Shown: positions 1 to 29,142 of the stretch, piece by piece | Position numbering within the stretch: position 1 is the stretch's first letter | How the letters are laid out: every line of letters starts with the position of its first letter | Virus record (IMG/VR): IMGVR_UViG_3300050185_000003 | Location: 1 to 40,283 of that record | DNA from: a virus | Direction: 5' to 3' (one strand) | Length of the DNA stretch: 40,283 nucleotides | Made by a program: the position numbers and the translations under genes | The notes under the pieces: model-generated | Databases searched by the model: none | Seen by the model: the letters and a program-made list of their open reading frames with translations, nothing else | What the model was told of the DNA's origin: nothing

Positions 1-127
1 CACCGCGACGCCAGGAATCCACCAGAGCTGAAGTCGCGCGGGAGGGGGAGGGGACGGTCCGGCGCATGACAAAGGAAACCGCCTCCCCCGAACGCGCCAT
101 CCAGGGGCCGCTTTTCGCATAGGGGAG
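1..127. repeat. Terminal direct repeat, left copy (identical to 40157..40283); circular-closure overlap of the contig
   Basis: Read directly: bases 1-127 (caccgcgacgccagg...ttttcgcataggggag) equal the last 127 bases of the window. The repeat carries the 3' end and TAG stop (120..122) of the CDS that starts at 40036. Confidence 0.95.
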
Positions 128-479: not shown

Positions 480-501
480 CCAACCGAAAAGGAGAGGAAC
501 C

Positions 502-1806: not shown

Positions 1807-1812
1807 GCGGCC

Positions 1813-2970
1813 ATGAAGCACCCCCGCGTTCTTCAATTAGCCGACCGACACGTCTACCTCCAGGGCCCGCGGGCGGAGGAATGCCGGCGGATCCACAGCT
1901 GGATTGCCGAGCACGTCCGCGACGCCAAGCCCGACCTCATCATCGACACCGGGGACGTGAGCGAGAAGCTCATGAGCCCGCAGGAGCGGCTGTTCCAGGT
2001 CGAGTTCCTGCGCTCGGTTTCCTCCGTCGCCCCTGTGGTCATCATCTCCGGCAACCACGATGACCGCGATGACCTCCGGCTCTTCCGCAAGGAGTACGGC
2101 TGGACGATGCCGGTCCAGATCTTCCTCGAGCCAGGGCTCATCATGGTCGGCGGCGTCGTCCTGGCGCTGCTGCCGTGGCCCGACCTGGGCCGCCTGGCCG
2201 CGGTCAGCGTGACGGACTCGATCGAGGGCCGGCGCGAGATCGCCAAGGCTGCGCTGATCGACGTCCTGCGCGGGCTGCGCGACAAGATCCCGGCAGGGGA
2301 GCCCTCGCTCCTGCTGGCCCATATGCCCGTGACCGGGGCCTCAATGGACTCTGGTCAACCCGTCAGCGGAGGCCATGAGATCGCGCTCTCTCCCGACGAG
2401 CTGCTTGAGTGCGGCGCCGCGGGAGTAGCCCTTGGGCATATCCACCTGCGGCAACAGATGGTCTCCGGCGATGGCCGGCCCGTGTTCTATGCCGGCGCTC
2501 CATTCCGCGGCGGATTCGGAGAGGCCAAGGGCACGAAGGGCGGGCTGATCTGGGGCTGGGACGGCAAGGCCTGGCAGGTCACGCCTTGGGAGATCCCCGC
2601 CCGCAGCATGGTCCTGGTCGAGACGACCTGGACGCCGCCCCAGGAAGACGCCCTGGCCCAGGATCCGGTCCCGCTGGCGGATCCCGATATCACCAAGGAC
2701 GCCGATGTCCGCGTCCGCATCACGTTCCCAGCCGAACACCGGGAGGCCATGAGGGCCGCGATGGCGCCGGCGCTTGACGCGCTGCGCGCGATCGCCAACT
2801 CCGTCAAGGTCGAGGAGACGGCCATCGTCGTCTCCAGGGCCAGGTGCTCAGAGATCCAGGCCGCGCGGACCACGATCGAGAAAGTCCAGGCCTGGGCCCA
2901 GGCCGTGGGCCAGGACGTCCCGGCCGGGGCCGAGACCAAGCTGTCCGTCATGGAAGGGGCCGCGTCATGA
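1813..2970 (+). CDS. SbcD/Mre11-like metallophosphoesterase nuclease
   Basis: Calcineurin-like phosphoesterase motifs appear in order: LADRH, DTGDV, SGNHDD, GHIH. The stop overlaps the start of the SbcC-like gene (ATGA). Confidence 0.8.
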   Translation: MKHPRVLQLADRHVYLQGPRAEECRRIHSWIAEHVRDAKPDLIIDTGDVSEKLMSPQERLFQVEFLRSVSSVAPVVIISGNHDDRDDLRLFRKEYGWTMPVQIFLEPGLIMVGGVVLALLPWPDLGRLAAVSVTDSIEGRREIAKAALIDVLRGLRDKIPAGEPSLLLAHMPVTGASMDSGQPVSGGHEIALSPDELLECGAAGVALGHIHLRQQMVSGDGRPVFYAGAPFRGGFGEAKGTKGGLIWGWDGKAWQVTPWEIPARSMVLVETTWTPPQEDALAQDPVPLADPDITKDADVRVRITFPAEHREAMRAAMAPALDALRAIANSVKVEETAIVVSRARCSEIQAARTTIEKVQAWAQAVGQDVPAGAETKLSVMEGAAS

Positions 2971-5183
2971 GGATCGACAGGTTAACCATCAAGGGCCTCA
3001 CCACCTATCGGGACGAGCAGGTCCTTGATCTGGCCGCGATCGGGGCCGGCGTCATCGCCGTCTCTGGTCCCAACGGCTCCGGCAAGACCACCCTCCTCGA
3101 GGCTGTACCCGGGGCGATCTATCGCCAGACCCCAAGCCGCGGCTCAATCGCCACCCTGGCCACGGACCGGGACGCGAGGATCGAGCTCGAGGGTGAGAAC
3201 GGGGCTCCGTTCCGGATCCGGCTTGACGTCGACTCCCACACCGGCCGACAGGAAGCGGTCATCTGCGACGGCGCCGGAGAGCCCCTGGCCGGGCCAAAGG
3301 TTAAGGACTTTGATGCCTACATCGCCCAACACCTGATTCCCATTGACGTCTATCTGGCCTCGTATTTCGCCAGCCAGACCGGCGCCGGCAGCCTGTTCAA
3401 GATGTCGCGCTCCGACCGCCGGTCTCTGTTCGGCCGGCTCCTGGGCCTCGAGCGCCTGGAGCAGCTGGCGGGCCAGGCCCGAGACCGCTCCCGCGCGACC
3501 GAATCCGAGATGGCCGCCGCCCGCGCGGCCTTGGACGCGATCGCCAGTCAGGCCGAGGACGTGGCCAAGCTCGAGCAGAATCTGTCCTCAGCCAGGGCCA
3601 ACGCCGCCACAGCCAAGGCCCAGCAGGAAGAGACACAGGCCCAGCTCGACCAAGCCATCAAGGTCCGGTCTGATCTCGAGGCTGCTGCGGCCGAGGTGCA
3701 GCGGGCCAGGAAAACGGCCCAGGAGGCCCGCTGGAGGGCCGATCAGGCCGGCCAGGACCTTGGCAAGGTTCGGCGCGAGCTCGACGCCCTGGCCGTGGTC
3801 CTGGGCCAGGCCGAGGCCATCCGCAAGGTCACCGCGGATATCCACGCCACAGAGGCCGAGCTCGAGCAGATCCGGGCCCGGGGAGAGGCCGCGGCAGCTG
3901 AAGAGCGTGCGGCCAAGGACACGGCGACTGAGGCTGCGAGAAAGCTGCAGGAGGCCAAGACGATCGAGGCCGAGGCGTTGCGCAACCTCAAGGATCTGCA
4001 TCAGGCTGACGTCGACTGGAAAGCCAGGCTCGAGCGGGCCCGCAAGGCCACGGCTTCCGTGCCCTGTTCCGGATCCCTAGACGACGCCACCCGCGCCAGC
4101 TGCTCGGCCCTGGTCGGGCACTTCAAAACCATCCAGGAAGCCGAGGCCGCGATCACTGACGTCGGGAACAAGATCATCAAAGCCAACACGCGGCACGCCG
4201 ATAGCATGACCGACCGCGGTTGCTTCGAAGGCGAAGCCTCAGAGGCCCAACGATTGGCCCTTAAAGCAACGTCTGCAGCCGAGGCCGTCCGCGCCGACTA
4301 CGGCAAGGCTGCGAAGCAGCTGCAGGCGCTGCGCACACAGGATCGGACCTCCGACCTCACAGCAGCCGAGGCTCGGTCCGCCGTCATCAAGGACAGGATC
4401 CGCGACCTCGAGGCCAAGGCGGCCGCCGCGGCTGACGAAGCCGCGAAGACGGAACGGGCTATTCCCACGGTCGACGAGTCCGCCAAGGCCAGGTCCGAGA
4501 AGGACGTCCGCGACCTGACCGATTCCGTCGCCGCCATGAGGCGCTACTACGAGGAAGACTCAGCTAAGGCCGTCCGCATCGAGACCACGCTAACGGCCGC
4601 GATCAAGTCCCAGGCCAAGGCCGAGGCGCTGCGAGAGAAGCTGGCGCCGCTCGAACGCGACCTCGCCGACTACCGCTGGCTGGGCCGGGCCCTTGGCCGC
4701 GAAGGCGTCCAGGCCCTCGAGCTCGATGCCGCCGGGCCGCGCGTCGCCACCCTAGCCAACGAGCTCCTGGCCGACGCCTACGGCTCCAGGTTCCAGATCC
4801 GGTTCGAGACCCAGGCTGCTCTGGCCTCAGGCAAGGGCGTCAAGGAAACCTTCGACATCGTCGTCTGCGATTCCGAACGCGGGCGCGAAGGCGACGGCGA
4901 GGACCTAAGCGGCGGCGAGAAGGTCATCGTCGGCGAGGCCCTGGGCTTGGCCGTGGGTCTCTTCCACGCCCAGAGCGCCGGCGCCAACCTCGGCACGGTC
5001 ATCCGCGATGAGACGGTCGGGGCCCTGGATCCGGAGAACGGCCAGCGCTACATGTCGATGTTGAGGGCGTTCCTTCGCGTCGGCCACGTCCACCAGCTGC
5101 TCATGGTCTCACACGCACCGGCGATCACAGCGCTTGCCGACCGCGTCGTCAACGTCGACAACGGCAAGATCAGGGTCAACTGA
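2967..5183 (+). CDS. SbcC/Rad50-like SMC-type ATPase
   Basis: From the internal ATG at 2967 the protein reads MRIDRLTIKGL.. with Walker A GPNGSGKTTLLEA. A roughly 450-aa Ala/Glu/Arg-rich coiled coil follows, then signature LSGGEKV, Walker B/D-loop VIRDETVGALD and an MVSHA H-loop. The upstream part of the 2844 ORF is Gly/Arg junk overlapping the previous gene. Confidence 0.85.
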   Translation: MRIDRLTIKGLTTYRDEQVLDLAAIGAGVIAVSGPNGSGKTTLLEAVPGAIYRQTPSRGSIATLATDRDARIELEGENGAPFRIRLDVDSHTGRQEAVICDGAGEPLAGPKVKDFDAYIAQHLIPIDVYLASYFASQTGAGSLFKMSRSDRRSLFGRLLGLERLEQLAGQARDRSRATESEMAAARAALDAIASQAEDVAKLEQNLSSARANAATAKAQQEETQAQLDQAIKVRSDLEAAAAEVQRARKTAQEARWRADQAGQDLGKVRRELDALAVVLGQAEAIRKVTADIHATEAELEQIRARGEAAAAEERAAKDTATEAARKLQEAKTIEAEALRNLKDLHQADVDWKARLERARKATASVPCSGSLDDATRASCSALVGHFKTIQEAEAAITDVGNKIIKANTRHADSMTDRGCFEGEASEAQRLALKATSAAEAVRADYGKAAKQLQALRTQDRTSDLTAAEARSAVIKDRIRDLEAKAAAAADEAAKTERAIPTVDESAKARSEKDVRDLTDSVAAMRRYYEEDSAKAVRIETTLTAAIKSQAKAEALREKLAPLERDLADYRWLGRALGREGVQALELDAAGPRVATLANELLADAYGSRFQIRFETQAALASGKGVKETFDIVVCDSERGREGDGEDLSGGEKVIVGEALGLAVGLFHAQSAGANLGTVIRDETVGALDPENGQRYMSMLRAFLRVGHVHQLLMVSHAPAITALADRVVNVDNGKIRVN

Positions 5184-5298
5184 ACATGTTCTTCCCAGCC
5201 GGCCGGGCCAGCGTCTCATCCAAGGCGCAGCGGTGCTCCCCCTTCCTTCACCGCGGCCCGGCCGGACTCTTCCTCCACTGCCAGGAAAGGAAAAAACC

Positions 5299-6111
5299 AT
5301 GCCGAGGTCTCGAATGATTAAGCCTGAATTCTGGGACGACGAGAAGCTCGCGAGAGTCTCGCGAGAGTCTCGGTTGCTCTTCGCCGGGCTCTGGACATAC
5401 TCGGACGACTTCGGTGTCGTCAAGGGAAATCTCGGCTGGCTGCAATCCAAGATATTCCCCTACGATCGGGACATCAAAGCCGCCAAGTTCACGGCCTGGA
5501 TCGAAGGCCTGGAGTCCAACGGATTCATCATTCCGTTCGATTCAGACGGCGAAAAATACTTCTATATCAAGAATTTTCATAGGCATCAGAACGTCGATCA
5601 TCCGTCGAAACAAAGAAACCCCGAGCCCCCTGTCGGCATCCTCTCGCGAGACAATCGCGAGCCCTCGCGAACCCCTCGCGTTGAAACAGAATCTGAATCT
5701 GAAACAGAAACTGAAACAGAAACTGAAACCGAAACTGAAACAACAAGTCCCGACTCTCGGCTTCCGGCCAAGGCGCCGGACGCCGTCGACGTGCATCTGA
5801 CCCAGCTGCTCATCGACCTGATCCTCAAGAACAATCCCGAGTCATCGATCATCAAGCGCCTGACGCCCAAGCGCCAGGCCGACTGGATCAACCAGGTTCG
5901 CCTTATGCGCGTCTCCGATGGCCGGACGCCAAGGCAGATCGAGGCCATCATTCGCTTCTCCCAAGCCGATAAATTCTGGCGGGCCAACATCCTCTCGACG
6001 CCGAAGCTGAGGGAGAAATGGGACACCCTGGTCATGCAGGCCCGCCGAGGAGACAAGCTCGACGGAGTCCGCGACTGGCTCAACGAATCTCCGAAGGAGA
6101 AAAACCCATGA
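5299..6111 (+). CDS. putative replication initiation/organiser protein (N-terminal MIKPEFWDDEKL..LLFAGLWTYSDDFG region)
   Basis: ATG 5299 follows AGGAAAGGAAAAAACC. The N-terminal pattern is remembered from phage replication-organiser-like proteins. The central ETESESETETETETETETETT stretch is encoded by a hexamer repeat. Confidence 0.45.
   Translation: MPRSRMIKPEFWDDEKLARVSRESRLLFAGLWTYSDDFGVVKGNLGWLQSKIFPYDRDIKAAKFTAWIEGLESNGFIIPFDSDGEKYFYIKNFHRHQNVDHPSKQRNPEPPVGILSRDNREPSRTPRVETESESETETETETETETETTSPDSRLPAKAPDAVDVHLTQLLIDLILKNNPESSIIKRLTPKRQADWINQVRLMRVSDGRTPRQIEAIIRFSQADKFWRANILSTPKLREKWDTLVMQARRGDKLDGVRDWLNESPKEKNP
5347..5373. repeat. tandem 11-mer ctcgcgagagt x2.4 containing the 10-bp palindrome TCTCGCGAGA
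   Basis: Read directly: ctcgcgagagt ctcgcgagagt ctcgg. Four related TCGCGA-core copies occur again at about 5639..5680 (ctctcgcgagacaatcgcgagccctcgcgaacccctcgcg). Confidence 0.85.
5683..5742. repeat. ten tandem GAAWCW hexamers (AT-rich microsatellite inside the replication gene)
   Basis: Read directly: gaaaca gaatct gaatct gaaaca gaaact gaaaca gaaact gaaacc gaaact gaaaca. Confidence 0.9.
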
Positions 6112-10690: not shown

Positions 10691-11398
10691 ATGACCAAGA
10701 CCCTCCGCGCCTGCCTCGCCGTTGTCGTAGCCATCGTCTTGGCCCTGGCGGGCTGGGGCGTCATCGAGCGCAAGGCCTACGTCGCCGCCAAGGCCAAGGC
10801 CGACATCCTCCGCTCCGACTACACGGCCTATGTCGAGCAGGCCGAGGCCGTCAAGGCCGATATGGCCATCGAGGCCGCAACCCTCCGCGCCGAGAAGGCC
10901 GCCGCCATAGACGCGGCCATCTCCGCGGAATCCTCAAAGGCCAAGATTGCCGCCGACCTGGCCGCCGAAAAAGCAAAAACGGCCGCCCTCCCTCCCGACA
11001 GCCTATCCGGCAGCATCAACCTACGGATCGGGGCGGGGCAATCCTACCCGACGGGGGACGGCCGTTTTTCCTTTTCCCGCCCCGGAGCCGACGCGACGCT
11101 CGATAGCTTCCTTGAAGGCGAGGCGTCGCACAACCTATATGAGGCCGAGCGATCCGTCACCGCGAATCTTCGGACGGCTTTGACCGCCGCGGAAAGCGAA
11201 AACGGCAACCTCAGCCATCGGCTCTGCCTCACCCAAGGCGAGTTGGACCGGGCCGTCAACGCCTGGGGTGCCGAGACATCGGCGCTTAACCACCTCCGCC
11301 TGTCCATCATCGGCCGAACCGTCACCACGGCGGCCATCAGCTTCGGCGTCGGCCTCGCTGTCGCGTGGGGTCTGCACGCTGCGGGGATCCTCAAATGA
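10691..11398 (+). CDS. membrane protein with N- and C-terminal hydrophobic helices and a central coiled coil (lysis accessory, spanin-like?)
   Basis: N-terminal LAVVVAIVLALAGWGVI, an Ala/Lys/Glu-rich helical middle and C-terminal AAISFGVGLAVAWGLHAAGIL. It lies directly downstream of the endolysin. Confidence 0.55.
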   Translation: MTKTLRACLAVVVAIVLALAGWGVIERKAYVAAKAKADILRSDYTAYVEQAEAVKADMAIEAATLRAEKAAAIDAAISAESSKAKIAADLAAEKAKTAALPPDSLSGSINLRIGAGQSYPTGDGRFSFSRPGADATLDSFLEGEASHNLYEAERSVTANLRTALTAAESENGNLSHRLCLTQGELDRAVNAWGAETSALNHLRLSIIGRTVTTAAISFGVGLAVAWGLHAAGILK

Positions 11399-11721: not shown

Positions 11722-12171
11722 ATGAAGAAAAAGACATCCCCTCGCTCTCGCGTGGCCTGCAAGGCCGCCGCGGCGTGGTCTGTCCGAGAGAAAGCCGAGA
11801 GCACAAAAGACACGGCTACAAAAAAAGCCCGCTTCCTGAAGGCCTATGAGCAGCAGTCCTGCAACATCTCCGCCGCCTGCCGGGCGGCCAAAATCAAATC
11901 CCGAAAGACGTTCTACCGCTGGTTAGAATCCGACCCCGTATTCGCCGAACAGGTAAGCGACCTCGATGAAGCCGACCTGGACTTTTCGGAGGGCGCGTTG
12001 AAAAAGCAGATCGGGAACGGGAATATCGCCGCGATCATCTTCCATCTCAAGACCAAGGGCCGTCGCCGCGGCTACATCGAACAGATCGACGGCAACATCC
12101 GCCACTCCCAGGCCCTCTCCCTGACCGACCTGCAGGGCTCGCTCAACGCCTACGAGGGGGCCGGAGCGTGA
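11722..12171 (+). CDS. terS: terminase small subunit (HTH type)
   Basis: KARFLKAYEQQSCNISAACRAAKIKSRKTFYRWLESDPVFAEQV...GNGNIAAIIFHLKTKG matches the remembered phage TerS HTH pattern. It lies immediately upstream of and overlapping terL. Confidence 0.7.
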   Translation: MKKKTSPRSRVACKAAAAWSVREKAESTKDTATKKARFLKAYEQQSCNISAACRAAKIKSRKTFYRWLESDPVFAEQVSDLDEADLDFSEGALKKQIGNGNIAAIIFHLKTKGRRRGYIEQIDGNIRHSQALSLTDLQGSLNAYEGAGA

Positions 12172-13625
12172 TTACCGCCGAGGCCTTGCTGATGCAGAGG
12201 TACCGGGCCCGCCCGGACTTCTTCGTTGAGCACGCTCTGGGCCACAAGACCTGGAGTAAGCAGCGCGAAGTACTACGCTCGGTCCGCGACCACGTCCGGA
12301 CCGCCGTCCGCGCCAGCCACGGCGTCTCCAAGACCTACACCGCAGCCGAGGCTGCCGTCTGGTTCCTCAACTGCGTCCCGCGCTCCAAGGTCATCACCAC
12401 GGCGCCGACGTTCATGCAGGTGGCGAAGCTGCTCTGGGCCGAGATCAACACCATCTACACGACATCCCGGATCCAGCTCGAGGGCGAGTGCCTGGCCGTC
12501 GAGATCAAGACCAAGCACCCCGACCATTTCGCCGTTGGGTTCTCGACCGACAAGCCGGCCCGGGCCGAGGGCTGGCACTCCCAGTCCATTATGTTCATCC
12601 TCGACGAAGGCAAAGGCATCGCGCAGTGGATGTGGGACAGCGTCCGCGGCGCCATGACCGGTGGCTTCTGCCGGCTGCTGGTGCTCTCGACCACGGACGG
12701 CGTCCAGGTCGAGGAGAACTTCTACCGCATCTTCCAGGGCGAGGACGCGGACAGCCAATGGAACCGGATCCATATCTCAGCCTTCGACTCGCCCTACGTC
12801 ACCGGCGAGAAGTTCCGCTCGGTCAAGATCCCGGATCCGCGCCGGCCCGAGCGCTTCGAGGTCGAGTGGACCGAGCCCAAGGACGTCAAGATCCAGATCG
12901 CCGATCAGGGCTACATCGACGCCGCGAAACTGGACTGGGGCGAGGACTCGGTCCTGTACCGGACCAAGGTCCTGGGCGAGATCGTTGACGACGCGGCCGA
13001 CTCCATCATCACCGTGGCCCAGACAAATCGCATGTTCGCCAACGCCTCCGCCCCGGCCTTCATCGACGCCGGGGCCCTGCAGGCCGGGATCGACGTTGCC
13101 CGCGGCGGGACCGATGACGCCGTGTTCTTTAGGTCCAAGGGGTTGCGGGTCACCGGCAGCAAGGTCATCCCTCCCCAGCGCGTGCCCGATAAGGCCAAGC
13201 TAGTCTTCATCGCCGACGAGTTCGAGCGTTTCATCGACCACGACAAGGCCTACCGGGTCAAGGTCGATGACACCGGCGTCGGCGGCGGCGTGACGGACAT
13301 CCTCCAGGACCGCGGCTACGCAGTCGCTCCCGTCAACAACGGCGGCGAGCCCTCCCAGCCAGACCGCTACAACAACGTCGCGGCCGAGATGTGGTACGAG
13401 GTCGGCAAACTCGTTCATGAGATCGCGTGCCCCGATCTCCCGCGCCTGGCCGGCGAGCTCACCGGGCGCAAGTCCGCGAGCCTGGACAGCAAGGGCCGGC
13501 TCCGGGTTGAGTCCAAGGACGACTACAAAAAGCGCAGCGGCGGCAAGTCGCCGGACATGGCGGATGCCTTTCTGCTTTGCTTCTACAACGGGGTTTCTAG
13601 AGAACCCCACATTTGGAGGGCGTGA
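12168..13625 (+). CDS. terL: terminase large subunit
   Basis: Walker-A-like RASHGVSKT, Walker B MFILDEGKG and nuclease-domain GIDVARGGTDDAV..VKVDDTGVGGG. The start (GTG 12168 or ATG 12192) is uncertain. Confidence 0.85.
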   Translation: MITAEALLMQRYRARPDFFVEHALGHKTWSKQREVLRSVRDHVRTAVRASHGVSKTYTAAEAAVWFLNCVPRSKVITTAPTFMQVAKLLWAEINTIYTTSRIQLEGECLAVEIKTKHPDHFAVGFSTDKPARAEGWHSQSIMFILDEGKGIAQWMWDSVRGAMTGGFCRLLVLSTTDGVQVEENFYRIFQGEDADSQWNRIHISAFDSPYVTGEKFRSVKIPDPRRPERFEVEWTEPKDVKIQIADQGYIDAAKLDWGEDSVLYRTKVLGEIVDDAADSIITVAQTNRMFANASAPAFIDAGALQAGIDVARGGTDDAVFFRSKGLRVTGSKVIPPQRVPDKAKLVFIADEFERFIDHDKAYRVKVDDTGVGGGVTDILQDRGYAVAPVNNGGEPSQPDRYNNVAAEMWYEVGKLVHEIACPDLPRLAGELTGRKSASLDSKGRLRVESKDDYKKRSGGKSPDMADAFLLCFYNGVSREPHIWRA

Positions 13626-16219
13626 TGAAAAAGAAACTGACCCTGATTGGAATCATCCTGGCGATTGTGTCCCTGGCCTTCGCCCTGGATACGGTGGTGG
13701 TCAAGACCGACAGCTACAACGTGACCGGAGAGGACGACGGCAAGGTCATCGTTATGAATGCGGCCACGGCTAAGGTCGTGGCTCTTCCGGGGCTAGGGTC
13801 TACTCAGGTCGGCTACGTCCTCACCGTCATCAAGCAGGGGGCCGGGGCCGTTACGATCGACGTCGGGGCCGGGGTGGTGATCGCCGATTCCACGGCCGGG
13901 GCCTACATCCGCAACACCACGTCCGAGACCTACGCCGCGATCCGGATCATCTACAGCGCCGTCAATTACTGGAAGATCTTGGGAGCGCTCGGAACCTGGG
14001 CCACAGATGTTTCTACGTTCTCGACAGGAGTCACGCTTCCGGTCGCGATAGCCAACGGAGGGACAGGCGCCTCGACCAAAGCGGCGGCCCATGACGCCTT
14101 GTCGCCGATGTCGACACTGGGGGACATCGTCTATGGCGGAGCCTCAGGGACCGGCACTAGGTTGGCGGGTAATATCGCGGCGACCAATAAGTGGCTACGC
14201 CAAATCGGGACCGGTTCGGCCAGCGCGGCCCCGACTTGGGAAGCCATCACAGACGCCGACCTGCCGTCGACGATCAAGGGTTTCACCCTGAGCCCTCTGG
14301 CGACCGGTTTTAGCATCGCGGCCGGAACGACCCCCAAGACCCTGACCGTGAATGAGACCACGGCTCTGAACGGCGGGACGATCTATAAGCTGCCCGTGTT
14401 CTCGGCCGCCAACTCCATCGGCGAGCTTGCCGCTGTCGGCGCGACGGGCGAGTATTTGGCGGGCGCGACGGGGGCAATCCCTGTATGGGCTACGCTGAAT
14501 CAGGCGGCTGTGGCGGGACTGACCACGGCGAGTAGCCCGACCTTTGCGGGGTTGACGATTACGGGAGCAAGCGGCGCGGTGTCTGCCTCTGCCGGCGTTC
14601 TGAGCGCCGGAACACTATCCGCTGGCAACGGCGGAACGGGTCAGTCCTCGTATACCATCGGTGACATCCTCTACGCCTCGGCCTCCGGAACGCTATCGAA
14701 ACTGGCGGGCGGCACCGCCGGGTACGTCCTCACGGCTCAGGGTGCTGGCGTTGCCCCGGCCTACGCGGCCGCTCCGACGGCCCAGGTTGTCCCGCACGTT
14801 ATCGGCGTCCAATGGAATCAGGCGACTGGCACTTGGACCTACATCGACCAGGACGCGGCGGCTCTGGCGATCACCCAGGCTCAGTTCGACCGCCATCCGG
14901 TCTGGGGTGGGATACGGCGCGTGAACCTCAACGCCGCCGGAACGGTTGTCGCGGCTATCGGGGATCAGGGCTTCGCGCTTGACGGGGCCAACGGCCGGGT
15001 CATGGTCGAGATTCCTAAGTTCTATGTCAAGACGAATTCTCCTTCGGCGAACGTCTATCAATGGTTCGTTTCCGACGTTCCGCTCCCCGGATACTACCTC
15101 CATCCAGCGTTCAAGCAAAGCAATGGCGGGGCGGTGACGCGGGCGGGTAATTACCTCTACATCGGGGCCTACGCGGCTGACCTGGACTACGACGGCGTGG
15201 GCGGTCATGTCGAGTTTAACAGCCGGACCGGGACCCAGCCCATGACCGGAACGGAAGCCATCTTCAGCGTCGCATTCACGGCTGGCGATAATGAGCCAGC
15301 CATCGGCGACTCGCTGGAAACCGCGACGGACAGCGGCTGGCTGGTCGTGGATTACGTCGTTGCAAGCGGGGCCTGGGCCACGAACGACGCCGCCGGGACG
15401 CTCTATCTGAGAAAGCCCAGCGACGCGGCTTGCGGGTTCACGAATACCGAGGCCATCACGAACACCACCCAGGCCAACGCGCTTGGAACGTCGGGAACAC
15501 CATCGGCCTTGACCCTGACCCTCGCCAACGCCCGCACCTACGCCGGGAACATCGGCACGGGCTGGTGCGTCGAGAACATCTGGGAATGGTCCGCTGTCCG
15601 CCTGCTCATGTACATCGAGTACAAGGGCGCGGCGCTCGATACCGGGATTGGCCTGGGCGTAATCAATAAGGCCAGCGGGACCGGATTCGCCGGGGAACTG
15701 AACGGAGCGGCGTCGATCGACAGCAACCTTGCCGCGAACGGGACGGGGGTCGGGACCGGGACGAACGGCCTTGTCCCCGTAGCATGGCGCGGGATCGAGA
15801 ACCCCTGGGGCAACGTCTGGCAGTGGGTCGAGGGCTGGAACACGGTGGACGGGACCGACACGGCGAACCAGGTCAAGTACAGGATCGCCAAGGCAGACGG
15901 GACAACGGCGTTCGCGGATTCGCTGGCCACCTATGACCAACTGGAGGCGACGCACACGGGACTGCCGGATGGATACGTGTCGAACGTCCACTTCGACGCC
16001 GGGTTCTCGCTGCTGTTCCTGCCGTCGGCGGTAGCCGGGGCGTCGGACACCTATCTCCGCGATTATTACTACGAACACAACACTGGGGGATCGGAGGCCC
16101 TGCTGGCCGGTGGCGTTTGGCGTAGCGGCGCGAATGCGGGCCCAGGCGATCTGAATTCGAATTATTCCGCGGGCGGTTCCGATCGCGATGTCGGCGCCCG
16201 CCTGAGTTTCCTCCGATAA
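13625..16219 (+). CDS. DGR target protein: fibre-like protein with a signal-peptide-like N-terminus and a C-terminal C-type-lectin-fold variable region
   Basis: ATG 13625 follows GGAGGG and overlaps the terL stop. The N-terminus is MKKKLTLIGIILAIVSLAFA|LD. Tail-fibre-type motifs are IANGGTGASTKAAAHDAL, GDIVYGG..GTRLAG and NGGTGQSSYTIGDILYAS..LSKLAGG. The C-terminus ALLAGGVWRSGANAGPGDLNSNYSAGGSDRDVGARLSFLR is the VR. Confidence 0.9.
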   Translation: MKKKLTLIGIILAIVSLAFALDTVVVKTDSYNVTGEDDGKVIVMNAATAKVVALPGLGSTQVGYVLTVIKQGAGAVTIDVGAGVVIADSTAGAYIRNTTSETYAAIRIIYSAVNYWKILGALGTWATDVSTFSTGVTLPVAIANGGTGASTKAAAHDALSPMSTLGDIVYGGASGTGTRLAGNIAATNKWLRQIGTGSASAAPTWEAITDADLPSTIKGFTLSPLATGFSIAAGTTPKTLTVNETTALNGGTIYKLPVFSAANSIGELAAVGATGEYLAGATGAIPVWATLNQAAVAGLTTASSPTFAGLTITGASGAVSASAGVLSAGTLSAGNGGTGQSSYTIGDILYASASGTLSKLAGGTAGYVLTAQGAGVAPAYAAAPTAQVVPHVIGVQWNQATGTWTYIDQDAAALAITQAQFDRHPVWGGIRRVNLNAAGTVVAAIGDQGFALDGANGRVMVEIPKFYVKTNSPSANVYQWFVSDVPLPGYYLHPAFKQSNGGAVTRAGNYLYIGAYAADLDYDGVGGHVEFNSRTGTQPMTGTEAIFSVAFTAGDNEPAIGDSLETATDSGWLVVDYVVASGAWATNDAAGTLYLRKPSDAACGFTNTEAITNTTQANALGTSGTPSALTLTLANARTYAGNIGTGWCVENIWEWSAVRLLMYIEYKGAALDTGIGLGVINKASGTGFAGELNGAASIDSNLAANGTGVGTGTNGLVPVAWRGIENPWGNVWQWVEGWNTVDGTDTANQVKYRIAKADGTTAFADSLATYDQLEATHTGLPDGYVSNVHFDAGFSLLFLPSAVAGASDTYLRDYYYEHNTGGSEALLAGGVWRSGANAGPGDLNSNYSAGGSDRDVGARLSFLR
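16097..16211 (+). repeat. DGR variable region (VR)
   Basis: 115-bp ungapped match to 16317..16431 with 18 mismatches. Sixteen of these fall at positions that are A in the other copy. The VR is in frame at the last 38 codons of the target gene. Confidence 0.9.
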
Positions 16220-16316
16220 GGCCGACAATGAAAATAAATGGCTTCGACCGCTTAGATCCGGGATTTTGTCCCGGTCTTCTTCGCGGTGGGAATAGGTCGA
16301 GAGGCATAGCGGTGCA

Positions 16317-16431
16317 AGCCCTGCTAGCCGGTGGCAATTGGAATAACAGCGCGAATGCAGGCCCAGGCTATCTGAATTCGAATAATTCCACGGGCAATTC
16401 CAATCGCAATATCGGCGCCCACCTGAGCTTC
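16317..16431 (+). repeat. DGR template repeat (TR)
   Basis: Adenine-rich copy with 29 A and 10 AAY codons when read in the VR frame (ALLAGGNWNNSANAGPGYLNSNNSTGNSNRNIGAHLSF). It lies in the non-coding gap between the target and the RT. Confidence 0.9.
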
Positions 16432-16568
16432 CAGCGGATCGGCAAGGAGTCCGTGGAGAGGAAACAGCCTCGGAACCTCACCCCCAAGGTGAAACAGTCA
16501 ATCTTCAAGGCCGTGCTGGTAGGGACAACCGAACGCTCGGCCTCCATCCTTGCCCCGGCGGTGCCCCT

Positions 16569-17666
16569 GTGAAGCGCTACGGGAACCTTTTCCAGCGGAT
16601 CTGCGCCATCGACAACCTCGCCCGCGCTCATGAGAACGCCCGCAAGGGCAAGACCCACTACTCGGCCGTCAAGATGATCGACGCCGATCCGGGCTTCTAC
16701 CTTAGCGAGCTGCGTCTCATGCTACTGGCCAAGAAGTTCACGACCTCTCCCTATGTTCACTTCACGATCCACGAGCCCAAGGAGCGCGAGATCTCGCGGC
16801 TTCCGTACTTCCCGGACCGGATCGTCCATCACGCGGTCATGCAGATACTGGGTCCGATCTGGGATCGCCAGTTCATCCGCGACAGCTACGCGGCGATCCC
16901 GGGGCGCGGCATCCACGCCGGATCCTACCGACTTCGCCAATATCTTCGCCGCCCCGGCTCCGAGTACTGCCTCAAGATGGACATCAAGAAGTTTTACCCG
17001 AACGTTGACCACGGCGTTCTAATGTCCATGCTCGAGCGGAAGATCAAATGCCCCGACACGCTATGGCTGCTCGAGGACATCGTCCGCAGCGTTCCCGGCG
17101 GCAAGGGCCTACCCATCGGGAATTACCTTAGCCAGTATCTATCGAACATCTACCTGGACGGGTTCGACCACTGGATCAAAGAGACCATGCGGTGCCCCTT
17201 GTATATCCGATATTGCGACGATGCCGTCATCTTGGCCAAAGACAAGAAGTATCTTGGGTGGCTGCTTGAACGTATCAGGCTATACCTCGAGAACAGCCTC
17301 CGCCTCGAGCTCAACCGGAAGACGAGGATCTTCCCTGTCGGCTCGGGAGGCGTTGATTTCTTAGGCTACAAGACGTTCCGTGATCGCGCCCTTCTCCGGC
17401 CAGGTTCGCGGCGGCGCCTGGTCCAGAAGATGCGCCTGATCATGCGGCGGTGGCGGTCCATGCGCCCCATCACCATCGTCAATACGATCATGTCCTACGT
17501 CGGGTGGGCCGTCCACTGCGACGCCCGCGGTCTGTTGCGAAAGCACATCACCGGAAACCGCTCGATCATGGCCGCCTTCACCTGGGCAGTGGGCAGGCTG
17601 GGCCTCAAACGATCGCCGATGGCCAGGCTCGGCATCAAGTATCGGAACCTATTCGAAACAGCATAG
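16569..17666 (+). CDS. DGR-type reverse transcriptase
   Basis: GTG start. The N-terminus MKRYGNLFQRICAIDNLARAHENARKGK is typical of DGR RTs. The protein carries the DGR-specific motif LPIGNYLSQYLSNIYL, the catalytic YCDD, and GVDFLGY after it. Confidence 0.9.
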   Translation: MKRYGNLFQRICAIDNLARAHENARKGKTHYSAVKMIDADPGFYLSELRLMLLAKKFTTSPYVHFTIHEPKEREISRLPYFPDRIVHHAVMQILGPIWDRQFIRDSYAAIPGRGIHAGSYRLRQYLRRPGSEYCLKMDIKKFYPNVDHGVLMSMLERKIKCPDTLWLLEDIVRSVPGGKGLPIGNYLSQYLSNIYLDGFDHWIKETMRCPLYIRYCDDAVILAKDKKYLGWLLERIRLYLENSLRLELNRKTRIFPVGSGGVDFLGYKTFRDRALLRPGSRRRLVQKMRLIMRRWRSMRPITIVNTIMSYVGWAVHCDARGLLRKHITGNRSIMAAFTWAVGRLGLKRSPMARLGIKYRNLFETA

Positions 17667-17912: not shown

Positions 17913-18023
17913 ATGCGCCTCATCAAGCCAGCCCTCCTCGCGCCGACGGCGATCCTGCTGTTCCCCCTGGTCTGCCTCATCGGGTGGGCCAAGGGGATAG
18001 CGGAGATGATGAGGGAGACCTGA
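17913..18023 (+). CDS. possible 36-aa membrane peptide (below the ORF-track cutoff)
   Basis: Hand translation MRLIKPALLAPTAILLFPLVCLIGWAKGIAEMMRET fills the gap between 17910 and the portal start. Confidence 0.25.
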   Translation: MRLIKPALLAPTAILLFPLVCLIGWAKGIAEMMRET

Positions 18024-18034
18024 GGACAGCCATC

Positions 18035-20140
18035 ATGGGCATTATCGACCGCGCCCGCTTCGTCCTGTTCGGGGATATCCCCGGCCACCAGAAGGGGCGC
18101 GCCTCGGCCGTCGACAACCCCATCACCCGCGCCATCCTGATGAGCGTTGGAAAGCAGGCCATTTGGTCAAAACAAAACTTCGAGACCCTCTCCCGCGAGG
18201 GATACGAGAAGTGCATGGCCGCCTACGCCTGTGTGTCATTAATAGCGAACGCGGCCGGGGGCATCGAGTTCAAGGTGATCCAGGGCAAGAAGGACATTGA
18301 GGAGCACCCGGTCCTGGACCTTCTCCGCCGCCCCAACGCCTACGAGGGCAAGCGGGCATGGATGCGGAAGCGATTCTCGCAGCTGCTGTTGGCCGGGAAC
18401 GCCTACACCCAGGCCATCCGGCCAACTAAGTCGCGGCCGCCAGCGGCCCTCTATCTCCCCATGCCGCAGCGGATGGCGGTCGACCCTGGTACCCCGCCCA
18501 TTCTCGTCGGCGGCTACATCTACGAGGTCAATGGTCGCAAGACCAACCTCGATGCCGAGCTCGTTCTGCACAGCAAGCTCTTCCACCCCACGGATGATTG
18601 GTACGGGCTCTCGCCTCTTAGCGTGGCCAGCCGCGGCGTCGACATCTCCAACATGGCGGCCGAGTGGAACATGCGCCTGCTGCAGAACGACATGCGGCCG
18701 GCCGGAATCCTGTCCTCAGAGACCAGCCTTGGCGAGCCTACGCGCGAGCGAATGAAGACCGAGCTCAAGGAGTCCTACGGCGGCTATGAGAACGCCGGGA
18801 CCCCGCTCGTCCTAGAGGGCGGTCTCAAGTGGCAGCAGTTGGGGATGTCATCCAAAGACCTGGACTGGCTCGGGGCCGTCGACCGCAATAAGCGCGAGAT
18901 CGCCTCTGTCTACAACATCGCCCCGGAGCTCATCGGCGACTCTGCCAATAAAACATACTCCAACTTCCAAGAGGCCCGCCGCGCCCTCTACACAGAGACC
19001 GTGCTGCCGCTGATGGATGAGTACGTTGACGACCTCAACAGCTGGCTCTGCCCCATGTTCGAGGAAGGCCTCCGCCTGGTCGTTGACCGCGACAAGATTG
19101 AGGCCCTCCAAGAGGACCGGGAGAAGAAATTCACCTACATCAACGGCTGCCGGGTGATGAAGATCGACGAAAAGCGCCGCGCCCTAGGCCTGGATCCGAT
19201 CGGGGAAAAGAACGGCGGAGAGATGATCCTGGTCTCGGCCGCAGATATCCCGCTGGAATTCGTGGCCGTGGATCCCGATCCTCCAGCCGAGACCGAGCCC
19301 GCCGCCGACCCGGATCCAGACGATAGCGAAGAGGGGCAGGACGAAGGTGCCAAAGCTGCGGGCAAGAAGCCTCGCCGGATGCTTCGCGACGCCCCCTCCC
19401 GCAAGTCCTGGTCCGCGCCAGAGCGCAAGGACGCGCTGTGGAAAAACTTTGCCCTCCGCGTCGAGACCAAGGAGCGGGGCCTGGTGGCAACGGCGCTCCG
19501 CTACCTCAAGGATCAGGCTCAGCGCGTCGCCAAGGCCAAGAACGTTGATATCCAGACTGAATCGCAGGCATTTGCCAAGGCGATCAGACCCTGGGCCATA
19601 TGGTCAGCCATCCGAGCTGGTGCCTCTGGGGTCAGGGCTTCGAAAGGGGAGCTCCCGGATCTCGACGAGAAGGTCAATCTGTTCGAGCTCACGGCTGAGC
19701 AGATCAGGCACCTGGACGAAATGATCCTTCACTCGGGTACTAAGATCGCCGAAAGCACGATGGCCCTGGTCCGGGACATTCTCAAAATTGCAGAGTCTGA
19801 GACCTGGACAACTGAGGAGCTGGCGCAGGGGCTCAAAGATAAGCTCGAAGGGTTTGCGCAGTGGCGGTGCCGCACGATTGCCAGGACCGAGTCTGCGAAG
19901 GTTGAGAACTGGGGCCAGCTCGAAGGCTATAAGTCAACCGAGTTCGTGAACAAAAAGGGTTGGCTGTGCTCCCGGGTCCCCGAATCCCGGGAAGACCACG
20001 TCCAGGCCGATGGGCAAGAGGTCGGCATCGACGAGGCCTTTATCGTCGGAGGCGAACAGATGCAATACCCCGGAGACCCAGCCGGTGACGCCGGTAACGT
20101 TGTCAACTGCCTGTGCTCCCACTATCCGATTGTGGAGTGA
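18035..20140 (+). CDS. portal protein (HK97-type) fused to a C-terminal Mu-F / SPP1 gp7-like head-morphogenesis domain
   Basis: The portal-like body (ACVSLIANAAGGIEFKV.., NAYTQAI.., SVYNIAPELIGD) is joined by the acidic linker DPDPPAETEPAADPDPDDSEEGQDEG to a Mu-F-like end (WRCRTIARTESAKVENWGQLEGY...GDPAGDAGNVVNCLCS). Start is ATG 18035 (GAGGAC upstream) or the ORF-track start 17984. Confidence 0.8.
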   Translation: MGIIDRARFVLFGDIPGHQKGRASAVDNPITRAILMSVGKQAIWSKQNFETLSREGYEKCMAAYACVSLIANAAGGIEFKVIQGKKDIEEHPVLDLLRRPNAYEGKRAWMRKRFSQLLLAGNAYTQAIRPTKSRPPAALYLPMPQRMAVDPGTPPILVGGYIYEVNGRKTNLDAELVLHSKLFHPTDDWYGLSPLSVASRGVDISNMAAEWNMRLLQNDMRPAGILSSETSLGEPTRERMKTELKESYGGYENAGTPLVLEGGLKWQQLGMSSKDLDWLGAVDRNKREIASVYNIAPELIGDSANKTYSNFQEARRALYTETVLPLMDEYVDDLNSWLCPMFEEGLRLVVDRDKIEALQEDREKKFTYINGCRVMKIDEKRRALGLDPIGEKNGGEMILVSAADIPLEFVAVDPDPPAETEPAADPDPDDSEEGQDEGAKAAGKKPRRMLRDAPSRKSWSAPERKDALWKNFALRVETKERGLVATALRYLKDQAQRVAKAKNVDIQTESQAFAKAIRPWAIWSAIRAGASGVRASKGELPDLDEKVNLFELTAEQIRHLDEMILHSGTKIAESTMALVRDILKIAESETWTTEELAQGLKDKLEGFAQWRCRTIARTESAKVENWGQLEGYKSTEFVNKKGWLCSRVPESREDHVQADGQEVGIDEAFIVGGEQMQYPGDPAGDAGNVVNCLCSHYPIVE

Positions 20141-26132: not shown

Positions 26133-26482
26133 TCGCCTACCTGGAGCTGTACAGCGAGCGGCACGCTGAGATCCTCAAGCCCGGGGATCACCAGCACCAG
26201 GTAGGGGAGCAAGGCCGGGAGGACTGCATGAACTGCATTCTTGCCGGGAAGGCCAGGAACATGAGCCGATTCGAAGTCCAGTGCTTCAACTGGTACTGCG
26301 ACAACGTCACCGACTTCACGCGCGAAGCCGGTCTGGTCGGCGACCTGGTTCGTGATCTTGAGCTTGCCGGGATCGTCAAGAAGCTCTTTCTCCAGGCGAT
26401 GAACAGGATCAAGGCGGCTTTCTCCAACATCGAGGCGGATATCGCGCGTCGACAGATGGACCAGGCTCGAAAGGCTTACTGA
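25728..26482 (+). CDS. tail assembly chaperone frameshift product (gpGT-like), -1 shift at 26123..26129
   Basis: The -1 frame is open from 26129 (CTG ATC GCC TAC ...) and runs into ORF-track entry 26228..26482. The coordinate arithmetic was checked: 25728 is frame 0 and 26228 is frame 2. Confidence 0.65.
26123..26129 (+). promoter_or_regulatory. programmed -1 ribosomal frameshift slippery heptamer A AAA AAC
   Basis: Read directly. It fits X XXY YYZ in the correct phase with the chaperone reading frame. Confidence 0.7.
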
Positions 26483-29142
26483 TGGCCGACATTAAGTTCC
26501 TCGTCTCGATCGACACTAAGGCGGGCACCGCCTCCCTGAAAGAGTTCGAGGGGGCTGTCGACGGGTTGGGGAAGACTGGAAGCCGGGCGGGCAGCCAGTT
26601 TCAAGACGGCCTGATCGCAAAGATCGCGGCCGGCGTCACCATCGCGAACCTAGCGACGAAGGCCTGGCACGGGTTCGTCGGGATCGGGAATGAGGCCGTG
26701 CAAGGAGCTATGGCCCAGGAGCAGGCCGACGCCGACCTGACGGCAGCTCTTGAGCTGACGGGCCGAACCGTCAAGGCCAACCGAGACCATTACCTGGCCT
26801 TTGCCCAAGCCCAGCAACTGGTTACGAAATACCAGGATGAGGAAATCGAGAGGTCCCAAGCCCTGCTCCTGCAGGTGACCAACCTCGATCAAAAGGGAAT
26901 CGACCGGGCCATGAAGGGGGCGATGGGCCTCGCCTCCGTTATGGGGATGGACCTGTACAGCGCGACGATGGCCGTGACCAAGGGCATGGAGGGCAACTAC
27001 CAAGCTCTCGGCCGGGTCGGGCTCAAGGTCGATGAGAACCTGTCCGCGGAGCAGAAGCAGGCTTCCCTCCTCTCCCAGCTCGAGGCGCTCTATGGCCGAT
27101 CGACTGCCGAGATCAACACCTACGGCGGAGGCGTCAATCAACTCAAGAAGTCCTGGAGCGAGGCGCTTGAAACATTAGGAACGGCGGTCACGAAGAACGA
27201 AGGGATCCAGAAGATCGTTAAAGACGTCACCAAGGTCCTCCAGGATTTCGTGGCCGATGGGACGGCCGAGGAGTGGGCCGAGAAAGTCAGCCGAGCTCTG
27301 GATACGATCGTCCGTTCCGTGACCATGCTTCGGACGATGGCCAAGGGGCCGACGGGCTGGGGCCAAGCGATCGCCGACGAGCTGGTCCCGCTCGATCAGG
27401 CGTCCCAGGATATGGCCGATCGGAACAAGCAGCGCGTCCGGGAGTTCCGGGATTCGCTCGAAAACTTCCACCCGACGATGGCCACGCTTCGGGATGAAAT
27501 CGAGAAAGGGGAAGCCAGCTGGTCTGCCTACACGACCCGTCTCTCCGCTGCGGACAAGGCTTTCACCCAAAGCAAGGGACCGATCACCGATTGGATCAAG
27601 GGTGTCCTGGGGATCAAAGAAGCGACCAACGAGACGGGGAATGAGGTTAAGGAGAAATCCCAGGAGATCGCCAAGTTCATCCGCGACATGAACAAAGATG
27701 TCGCGGCCAGCACGAAGGCCCAGTTCGACGCCTCCCGCGAAGCCGCAAGAGCTGAGTACAGGGACCGGCTCGATACCGTCAACAAGATGAAGGGGACTGA
27801 GGCCGAGCATGCTTCCGCCCGGGCGGCCGCGGCTTCTGCGCTCTCGGCCAAGCTAAAGAAGATCGATCTTGACGAAGCTGAGGCCATAGAGAAGATCAGG
27901 GCGGATCTGACCAACAAGATTGCGGCCGGATACGAGGACCAGTACCAGGCCGCCAGGATCGCGGCAGACAATGAGTACCGCGAATCGGAAGCCAATATTG
28001 CCAAGACCGTGAAGGCCGGCGAGGAGCGGGATCAGCTGCTGATCTTGTCGGCCCAGGCCAGGGCCGCGGCGATGGCCAACATCGATCGCGAGGAGGCCGC
28101 TCATCGAGGCGATCTTCAGAAAAAGATCGCCGACGGAGCGAAGGCCTACGACGAAGAGCGGAAGAACGTCTACAAAGCCTATGTCTCGGCCGCGAGCGAG
28201 GCCCAAAACGCTCTCGCCATGATCGGGAAGAAGGGCTTCGCGGCGGAGCTGCTGCAGCTGCGCCAGGAGAAGGCGGCCAAGATCCAGGCCATCAAAGACG
28301 ACGAGAAGATGGCCGGCAACCATAAGGCCGAGCTGATCGAGATCTGGGAAGGCTACTACAAGAAAGCCGAAAAACAGGCCAAGCAGGCCAAGATCGTCGA
28401 ATACGCGAGCATGGCCTTCGACGCCATCGCCCAAGTCGCAACGGCGGCGCTTTCGAGCGTGGCCCAGAAGTGGCAGCAGTTCTACGAAAATCAGCTTGCC
28501 CTCACCGAAAAGGAATATGAGGGCAAGAACAACGCCCTGGACGACTGGTACGAGCAGCAGAAAGAAGCGATCGAGAACAGCGTCTCGACGGAAGAGGAGA
28601 AGCAGGCCGCCCTCGAGGCTCTCGACAAGGAATACGCTCAGAAGCAGGAGGCGCTCCAGAAAGAGCAGGAGGCCAAAGAGTGGGGCCTGAAGAAGAAGGC
28701 CTTCGAGGCCCAGAAGAAGGTCGACATCGAGACGGCCTATATCACGATGGCCAGCTCGATTCTCTCCGCTCTGGCGACGAAGCCGTTCCTCGTCGGCCTG
28801 GCGATGGCGGCCCTTGCCGGCACCCTGGGCATGATCCAGATCAACGCCATCAAGCAGAGGTCTTTCCCCCTGGCCGGGGGGGCGATTTTCAGAGAGCCGA
28901 CCCAGTTCGTCACAGCAGGGGGTCGGTCGTTCGAGACCGGAGACGACGGCGTCGAGATCATGCAGACCGAGAAGATGCTGCGCCGGATCGTCCGGGAAGA
29001 GACGGGCGGAAGGTCCGGAGCAAAGATTATCCACGTGCACAACTATATGGGCGGAAAAAAGGTCGACGAGTACATCATCAAGGTCGCCAACGACGGCTTC
29101 CAGACCGGGCAGATTCGGACCTACTACCGGAACATGAATTGA
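26482..29142 (+). CDS. tail tape measure protein
   Basis: 886 aa, largely Ala/Glu/Lys/Gln helical, with a hydrophobic segment (FLVGLAMAALAGTLGMIQI) near the C-terminus. The start overlaps the GT stop. Confidence 0.85.
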   Translation: MADIKFLVSIDTKAGTASLKEFEGAVDGLGKTGSRAGSQFQDGLIAKIAAGVTIANLATKAWHGFVGIGNEAVQGAMAQEQADADLTAALELTGRTVKANRDHYLAFAQAQQLVTKYQDEEIERSQALLLQVTNLDQKGIDRAMKGAMGLASVMGMDLYSATMAVTKGMEGNYQALGRVGLKVDENLSAEQKQASLLSQLEALYGRSTAEINTYGGGVNQLKKSWSEALETLGTAVTKNEGIQKIVKDVTKVLQDFVADGTAEEWAEKVSRALDTIVRSVTMLRTMAKGPTGWGQAIADELVPLDQASQDMADRNKQRVREFRDSLENFHPTMATLRDEIEKGEASWSAYTTRLSAADKAFTQSKGPITDWIKGVLGIKEATNETGNEVKEKSQEIAKFIRDMNKDVAASTKAQFDASREAARAEYRDRLDTVNKMKGTEAEHASARAAAASALSAKLKKIDLDEAEAIEKIRADLTNKIAAGYEDQYQAARIAADNEYRESEANIAKTVKAGEERDQLLILSAQARAAAMANIDREEAAHRGDLQKKIADGAKAYDEERKNVYKAYVSAASEAQNALAMIGKKGFAAELLQLRQEKAAKIQAIKDDEKMAGNHKAELIEIWEGYYKKAEKQAKQAKIVEYASMAFDAIAQVATAALSSVAQKWQQFYENQLALTEKEYEGKNNALDDWYEQQKEAIENSVSTEEEKQAALEALDKEYAQKQEALQKEQEAKEWGLKKKAFEAQKKVDIETAYITMASSILSALATKPFLVGLAMAALAGTLGMIQINAIKQRSFPLAGGAIFREPTQFVTAGGRSFETGDDGVEIMQTEKMLRRIVREETGGRSGAKIIHVHNYMGGKKVDEYIIKVANDGFQTGQIRTYYRNMN

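Follow-up and report, generated by a model that had tools for sequence, protein, structure and literature searches.

The virus record IMGVR_UViG_3300050185_000003 of IMG/VR (40,283 nt, analyzed over its whole length and called the window here) very probably carries a genuine diversity-generating retroelement (DGR) of the simplest architecture within a complete temperate phage, and the same high confidence extends to the mechanism proposed below. The type of system is well known, and is present here in its accessory-protein-free form. The whole system covers about 4 kb of the plus strand and consists of a target gene encoding the variable protein (13625..16219, 864 aa) with the variable repeat (VR; 16097..16211) at its 3' end, a 115-nt template repeat (TR; 16318..16432), a 136-nt spacer (16433..16568) and a 365-aa reverse transcriptase (RT; 16569..17666). 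Every DGR-defining feature that we tested was found, but not Avd, which is not a defining feature. An initial annotation, made from the letters of the sequence, had proposed a complete DGR bearing the signature of mutagenic retrohoming. This signature was supported by the adenine-specific asymmetry of TR and VR, a lectin-fold target, a DGR-type RT, a structured spacer RNA and a difference at the repeat ends resembling that between the initiation of mutagenic homing (IMH) and IMH* sequences. The word complete holds only in the minimal sense of target, TR and RT, as neither Avd nor another accessory gene was detected in the open reading frames (ORFs) scanned.

Template and variable repeats

The VR, which forms the last 38 codons of the target gene, and the TR aligned without gaps over 115 nt at an offset of 221, with 18 mismatches. 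Sixteen of these were located at adenines of the TR, which holds 29 (13 A>G, 2 A>T and 1 A>C), and the remaining two were T16369>G and C16428>T. The formal alignment thereby confirmed an enrichment at TR adenines first noted by hand, with P=5.3e-10 for at least 16 of 18 mismatches falling on 29 adenines among 115 positions (hypergeometric test). The same TR/VR pair was recovered by an independent repeat finder (84% identity) and by a blastn-based DGR screen. All counts of the initial annotation (115 positions, no gaps, 18 mismatches, 16 of 29 adenines) were reproduced, and its choice of the 13625..16219 frame as the VR-bearing gene was correct, but its TR coordinates (16317..16431, an offset of 220) were off by one and would give 84 mismatches. 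Its reading of the codons was likewise exact: of the ten AAY codons that the TR contains in the VR frame, three are the same in the VR and the other seven read V, R, S, Y, G, D and D there.

No second VR was observed on either strand of the window when the TR was searched with each A treated as N. The excess of A>G changes (13 of 16) was considered as a possible anomaly and rejected, since substitutions across the relatives described below totalled 432 to G (58%), 204 to T (28%) and 103 to C (14%).

Retrohoming and its direction

The closest other element was found in L082, a Logan contig whose target module is 68% identical to that of the window. Its TR is approximately 90% identical to the window TR (12 differences in 115 nt), and 17 of the 18 mismatches between this TR and its own VR were at adenines. 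Comparison of the two VRs was restricted to the 103 positions where both TRs agree, and within these the VRs differed at 12 of 24 TR-adenine positions but at only 1 of 79 others (Fisher P=2e-8). The 300 nt of coding DNA just upstream of the VR were 73% identical between the two. Because the non-adenine positions of the VR match the TR while the adenines and flanks diverge, the VR has been repeatedly rewritten from the TR. Mutagenic retrohoming has thus driven a concerted evolution of the repeats in both lineages.

The 3' end of the VR (16193..16211, plus strand) is IMH-like, with a G+C run GGCGCCCGCC followed by TGAGTTTCC. The difference between GAGCTT in the TR and GAGTTT in the VR (C16428/T16207) was fixed in the window, L082, L164 and L165, which extend down to 58% RT identity, and in all four the TR ends in CTGAGCTT and the VR in CTGAGTTT. 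Homology between the repeats stops at 16432/16211, 4-5 nt past this fixed difference, and the last adenine substitution was observed at 16421/16200. As the C/T difference is fixed while the sequence upstream of it is homogenised, this position would not be transferred, by analogy with the IMH and IMH* logic of BPP-1. From the last adenine substitution and the fixed difference we infer that cDNA transfer starts between 16421 and 16428.

Near-identical phages were sought as a source of VR variation. Nothing above 54% RT identity was found in IMG/VR, in a metagenome contig collection (JGI and ENA records) or in GTDB genomes, and blastn against GenBank phages gave no match. The 90% clusters of the target and of the RT hold only this phage.

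Reverse transcriptase

The RT has a GTG start 136 nt past the TR end, contains the motifs IGNYLSQ and YCDD, and matched RVT_1 of Pfam (E=2e-17) and phrog_1423 (E=1e-123). Its best sequence match in the PDB was the BPP-1 RT, bRT (8ub7_A, E=4e-42), followed by a group II intron RT (3e-25) and chains called 'retron-type' RT by their depositors (2e-18). Scores against the NCBIfam models of group II, Drt (Drt3a, Drt2) and retron RTs were far below their cut-offs. The ten residues highlighted by the bRT cryo-EM study (K29, F66, R74, I76, I181, G182, Q187 and the catalytic D138, D215 and D216), which cover catalytic, fingertip and adenine-mutagenesis roles, were all kept.

We also screened relatives of the RT for DGR features in 82 sources, comprising 80 loci at 32-52% RT identity, L081 and the window. 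An adenine-biased TR with one to three VRs was observed in 71 of the 82, and in nearly all of these the TR ended 100-250 nt upstream of the RT. The VR-to-TR distance was too short for an avd gene in most of the loci. By these sequence comparisons the RT belongs to the DGR type, with bRT nearer to it than any retron or intron RT. The initial annotation, which had read it as a DGR enzyme from its two motifs and had named a position outside the DGR clade as the result that would overturn this, therefore stands: none of the PDB, NCBIfam, residue and locus comparisons placed it elsewhere.

The GTG start of the RT lies inside CTGTGA (16566-16572), so that an ORF running through the TR stops on the RT start codon. 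No clear ribosome-binding site precedes the window RT, and the L082 RT has GGAG and an ATG. Translational coupling of the RT to the TR-spanning ORF is possible. Separately, the RT frames of crAss-like loci from human-gut contigs (sample 3300045988; L023, L039-L060 and similar) contained an in-frame stop at codon 137-169, and tblastn alignments ran past it, which suggests stop-codon reassignment in those phages.

Target protein

The target protein can be divided into three parts. A GGAGG ribosome-binding site lies before its ATG at 13625, which overlaps the stop codon of the terminase gene. Residues 1-23 (13625-13693; MKKKLTLIGIILAIVSLAFA/LD), read by eye, resemble a Sec signal peptide with KKK, a 17-residue hydrophobic core and AFA/LD. 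Similar N-termini were observed in 18 of 113 target-family members, including the closest, P0123 (L082) and P0130 (L165). One would not expect such an N-terminus on a virion fibre. The second part, residues ~130-390, is fibre-like and draws most database matches to the full protein; this region is common to long fibre-type proteins, several of which carry PF13884, a tail-fibre chaperone domain. The third part, residues 395-864, is a separate module, which also occurs as stand-alone proteins of about 500 aa in a large family (103 matches in a word-indexed search; 2430 cluster representatives in a full HMMER search at E<=1e-3). The match of the target to phrog_5302 'tail protein' (E=2e-58) covers residues 422-867.

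No Pfam or PDB match was found for the target at the sequence level, including the Mtd domains. The module family is without a Pfam domain of its own, its few precomputed matches, e.g. Mtd_N, lying in other parts of the proteins, and PF18454 (Mtd_N) was observed in three distant module relatives only. An AlphaFold2 model of residues 395-864, built from a 49-sequence alignment, had a pLDDT of 91.4 and a pTM of 0.92. When this model was searched against the PDB with Foldseek, TaqVP (5vf4) gave the sole matches at E<=0.001 (E=5e-10), and the next in the list were five Mtd variants (1yu0-4) and TvpA (2y3c), below which there was only noise. TaqVP, Mtd and TvpA are each a DGR variable protein of solved structure. 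With these at the head of the list, the target has a variable-protein fold of the lectin type and, like Mtd, carries its VR at the C-terminal end of that fold. Its resemblance to Mtd is structural only.

Beyond the target stop codon, a hairpin (CCGGGA-TTTTG-TCCCGG, 16258..16274, plus strand) with a T-rich tail is probably the terminator of the target gene, and its role as a DGR component is doubtful. We considered it as a target-recognition cruciform of the BPP-1 type and found this doubtful, given its distance of 46 nt from the end of the VR and its deletion in L082, a locus that is otherwise conserved. The stretch just past the stop (16220-16257) is highly conserved with L082 (7510-7546), and its AATGAAA(A/T)T motif is common to four lineages (window, L082, L164 and L165). 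This motif could be the start of the TR-spanning ORF, an element of the target site or a promoter.

Spacer RNA

The segment 16412-16580 (169 nt) is 93% identical to L082, above the flanking coding DNA, and the spacer itself differs at 9 positions (~93% identical). A single-sequence fold of the whole TR and spacer gave no signal (z=+1.06), so the structure was visible in the comparative analysis only. For this we gathered closer relatives through RT homologues at 55-81% identity, aligned seven spacers and built a covariance model (R1). The model gave 36 matches among 99 sources. Every match was a TR-RT spacer in the orientation of the RT, with its end at the RT start, and several came from loci that had not been used to build the model. 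In its alignment 88.5% of cells were paired, against 67% in shuffles and 34-51% in slid registers, and 22 of 25 pairs showed compensatory changes; these pairing figures are somewhat overstated, the alignment having been fitted to the model.

Duplex prediction in eight lineages revealed a second interaction, in which a box 13-24 nt upstream of the TR (AGGUCGAGAGGC, 16294..16305 on the plus strand of the window) pairs with the spacer right after an invariant AACAG. Compensatory changes were observed in 7 of its 12 pairs, and 95.2% of cells were paired against 19-56% in slid registers, with the segments cut into register by hand. Adding four pairs with the TR 3' end gave 95.5% of cells paired over 16 pairs. 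Helices of 9-16 bp between an upstream box and the spacer were found at the same relative positions in more distant DGRs.

Read along the window, the predicted spacer structure begins with a stem-loop after the TR (16435-16453), followed by a strand (GGA 16460-16462 and A16466) pairing with UUCC at the TR 3' end (16429-16432), the strand of the box duplex (16467-16478), a hairpin (16479-16491) and then AAACA leading into a single-stranded stretch, and a long 3' stem-loop domain (16508-16543). A permissive Rfam scan matched RT-17 (RF03020) at 16474-16553 (28.1 bits, E=0.002 in a 421-nt search), and the same family reached or exceeded its gathering score in the same TR-RT position of L011, L038, L022 and L019 (40.7-64.8 bits). 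The RT-17 model spans the 3' two-thirds of the spacer, but not the parts pairing with the TR end or the box, and its ACC-hairpin-AAAC ... GUGCUGGUAG ... CGAA core aligned to the window over the matched segment. Together, the covariation and the RT-17 matches support the spacer RNA structure and its pairings. According to Weinberg et al. 2017 (PMC5737381), RT-1 to RT-19 are motifs found near RT genes, of which RT-10 alone, in the BPP-1 spacer, was tied to a DGR and the DGR role of the others was speculated. The data from the window and its relatives support such a role for RT-17. In a more distant DGR (L064, RT 35% identical) the TR-RT spacer contained Rfam RT-18 at its gathering threshold or better (5902-5979, 67 bits), which is therefore a second orphan RT motif mapping to DGR spacers.

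Proposed mechanism

Under the mechanism that we propose, an RNA of ~16290-16568 containing the box, TR and spacer would be made, probably within the late transcript. Its spacer would fold back twice, with one segment on the TR 3' end and the adjacent one on the upstream box, and further stem-loops would presumably hold the RT. By analogy with BPP-1, this geometry would let the RT self-prime cDNA on the RNA near 16424-16428, from where it would copy the TR towards its 5' end and insert random bases opposite adenines. The cDNA would then replace the VR from 16097 to ~16206 in the target gene. The C/T difference at 16428/16207, together with the loss of homology past 16432/16211, would mark donor and recipient, and the TR would never be overwritten. 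Up to 29 positions would be diversified in this way, mostly the first two bases of the ten Asn codons, on the C-terminal surface of the lectin-type fold. The system may still be active and may work independently of Avd, and the target is a putative binding protein.

Weighing the alternatives

Several observations weigh against a working DGR in the window. Avd (PF05635), HRDC and four-helix-bundle accessories were not found in the ORFs scanned, which with Pfam were those from 5134 onwards and with NCBIfam were the four ORFs of the DGR region and nine other small ORFs; five ORFs at 133-5183 were not scanned, and the accessory types MSL and CH1 have no model in the libraries used. Avd is present in ~74% of DGRs and is essential in BPP-1, the only DGR studied biochemically. 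The RT-17 score of the window (28.1 bits) is below the 40.4-bit gathering score. The box:spacer duplex of the window contains a 3x3 internal loop, with 9 of 12 pairs formed, and the single-sequence minimum-energy fold prefers a local hairpin over it. The predicted initiation geometry is also ambiguous, as 16467-16470 have two possible partners, the TR 3' end (GAGC) and the upstream box. Near the TR, no promoter resembling the sigma-70 type was detected. Finally, the assemblies of the phage (JGI, NCBI and Logan) share one target sequence and one VR, and polymorphism of the VR was not seen at the consensus level. L081 is base-identical to the window over 13 kb, and SRR14656042 contains an identical contig.

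Some of these points would fit a relic, that is, a DGR whose parts are still recognisable but which has lost retrohoming, for example through loss of Avd, and whose VR/TR differences are fossil. The undetected accessory gene, the VR identical in every assembly, a box:spacer duplex less perfect than in the relatives and the two non-adenine mismatches would all be expected of it. Yet no key residue of the RT has been lost and its ORF is intact, and the spacer is ~93% identical to L082 where the upstream coding DNA is 73% identical, which indicates purifying selection. The relatives mostly have no avd between VR and TR, yet show fresh adenine-specific divergence of their VRs, and one of the two non-adenine mismatches is the fixed IMH-like difference. 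We consider a relic improbable. Direct repeats of this size do arise by duplication, and a segmental duplication of the gene 3' end, decaying by chance beside an unrelated RT of a retron, group II intron or defence system, could also draw on the weak RT matches to Drt3a, Drt2 and retron models, all of them far below cut-offs. It is effectively refuted by the mismatch spectrum, with 16 of 18 differences on the adenines of one copy (P=5e-10), and its probability is negligible given that 71 of 82 relatives have the same asymmetry at the same spacing, that non-adenine VR positions stay identical to the TR while the flanks diverge, and that the best solved relative of the RT is the BPP-1 DGR enzyme. 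Rfam detected no group II intron or retron RNA.

The downstream repeat copy had been described as non-coding. It shows no gene-like behaviour, but the TR does lie inside a mechanical ORF (16228-16572) that continues through the spacer to the RT start codon and might be taken for a small accessory protein replacing Avd. ORFs alike in extent, from the TR through the spacer to the RT start, were observed in L082, L165 and L166, and the frames of L167 and L168 are open but without an evident start codon. The start-like AATGAAA motif after the target stop is conserved in the four lineages named above, and with no clear ribosome-binding site before the GTG of the RT, translational coupling is conceivable. 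Against this, L164 and L169 have the frame closed, and in L166, L167 and L168 its phase with respect to the conserved AACAG is not that of the window, so the peptide is not conserved. The ORF is missing from more distant relatives, and the '+4' stop arises wherever an ATG or GTG is followed by A. Family matches of the product are confined to the TR-derived stretch, and conservation of the spacer tracks base-pairing rather than codons. We rejected this ORF as a gene, for its closure in two lineages and its varying frame relative to the RNA motif, and regard a protein product as very improbable.

Two other small ORFs were noted around the RT. The 77-aa ORF after the window RT was rejected as an accessory gene and assigned to the head module, as its product is acidic and it is shared with L163 alone, where the portal context is the same. 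In L167 (1607-1858), L168 (1381-1692) and L169 (5438-5767) a protein of 83-109 aa (…GDKVKID…FTGSDVLI…RYYT.S) is encoded just downstream of the RT, and is a candidate accessory gene of the avd-less relatives; the window was not searched for it.

Comparison with known systems

A target, TR and RT with no accessory gene detected correspond to 'Architecture A1' in the survey by Wu, Gingery et al. 2018 (PMC5758913). In that survey the accessory-free Architecture A made up 29% of 372 DGRs, with 75 of the 372 in the TR-RT form A1. The avd gene was found nowhere else in A1 genomes, Avd-independent retrohoming was proposed, and Avd does not define the family for DGRs as a whole. The window shares with A1 the TR-RT core, the adjacent upstream target and the absence of an accessory gene. 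The survey gave no account of spacer RNA in such elements.

The DGR of BPP-1 (mtd-avd-TR-brt) is alike in being phage-borne, with a VR at the 3' end of a lectin-fold protein of the receptor-binding type. In both, the TR lies just upstream of the RT (spacer of ~140 nt in BPP-1 and 136 nt here), the RTs are homologous (E=4e-42) with all named functional residues kept, and the repeat 3' ends show an IMH/IMH*-type asymmetry. The order of RNA elements equals that in the BPP-1 DGR RNA and ribonucleoprotein, where the box at 16294-16305 has its counterpart in the upstream strand of the 'cPRT Stop' duplex. Unlike BPP-1, the window has a VR-TR gap of only ~100 nt without avd (and no Avd homologue in the scanned ORFs), a spacer that is RT-17-like rather than RT-10, no conserved hairpin immediately 3' of the VR, and a longer target (864 aa) with a signal-peptide-like N-terminus, located between terminase and portal genes outside the tail module. 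These differences are within the variation already described for DGRs. TaqVP (of Thermus aquaticus, PDB 5VF4), Mtd and TvpA share with the target the lectin-type fold and variable residues at the C-terminal end, but sequence identity is 11-15%, TM-scores are 0.2-0.5, and the module here is larger and forms its own family.

Phage genome and cassette setting

A perfect 127-nt direct repeat at both ends of the window (1-127 = 40157-40283) is the signature of a circularly closed assembly, giving a true genome length of 40,156 bp. The G+C content is 63%. No tRNAs were found in the window, and no Rfam family reached its gathering score. No closely related prophage that would point to a host was found either. 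Packaging genes comprise the small (11722-12171) and large (12168-13625) terminase, the DGR cassette coming next, and the head and tail genes include a portal-MuF fusion (17984-20140), an S78 prohead protease, an HK97-type capsid, a tail tube and a 1191-aa FN3/discoidin tail protein. An 886-aa ORF (26482-29142) without a family match occupies the usual position of the tape measure. Lysogeny and early genes include an integrase (35332-36429) and a CI-type helix-turn-helix/S24 repressor (37156-37911), both on the minus strand, together with a CII-like protein, RusA, an SLT transglycosylase and an M15 peptidase. The genome is that of a complete temperate siphovirus-like phage of ~40 kb.

The position of the cassette between the large terminase and portal genes, outside the tail module, was also observed in L163 (RT, then portal context) and L165 (RT, then prohead protease). 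In L082 and L168, among the closest DGR relatives, the neighbours of the cassette are not phage head genes but glycosyltransferase, methyltransferase and LicD-type genes (L082 1-4300, L168 4592-5406), and the cassette therefore moves between very different genomic contexts.

Three repeat structures were noted elsewhere in the window. Imperfect GAAAC/GAATC tandem units at 5682-5741 encode an acidic low-complexity run ETESESETETETETETETE within the ORF 5134-6111, an overlapping palindrome at 5337-5386 is made of TCTCGCGAGA repeats, and a 31-nt inverted repeat (10964-10994 and 11050-11080; 81% complementary, 55 nt apart) lies within the ORF 10691-11398 in the lysis region.

Discussion

Tens of thousands of phage DGRs have already been catalogued, and the points of note here are the RNA anatomy of an Avd-less DGR and a possibly exported target. 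To our knowledge, the mechanism of the accessory-free architecture has never been studied biochemically. The window provides a compact, complete example of it, and the comparative data allow concrete, testable roles to be assigned to its RNA segments, namely the box at 16294-16305, the TR 3' end, the RT-17-like domain and the spacer at 16460-16478. An orphan RNA motif, Rfam RT-17, gains a function from its link to DGR spacers.

We tentatively put forward a joint reading, which taken as a whole we think rather unlikely, in which retrohoming is independent of Avd and scaffolded by the RT-17-class spacer RNA alone, and the target is an exported or cell-surface protein rather than a tail fibre. 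The scaffold, which in BPP-1 needs the Avd pentamer, would here be formed by the TR 3'-end duplex, the 12-bp upstream-box duplex and a stem-loop located where BPP-1 binds Avd. An exported protein is suggested because the target lies in the packaging module and has a putative Sec-type signal peptide, as in its closest relatives. If the RT and RNA do work without Avd, they would offer a smaller chassis than BPP-1 for targeted in-vivo mutagenesis. With a putative signal peptide on a target encoded in the packaging module, it may also be asked which proteins other than tail fibres are diversified by phage DGRs.

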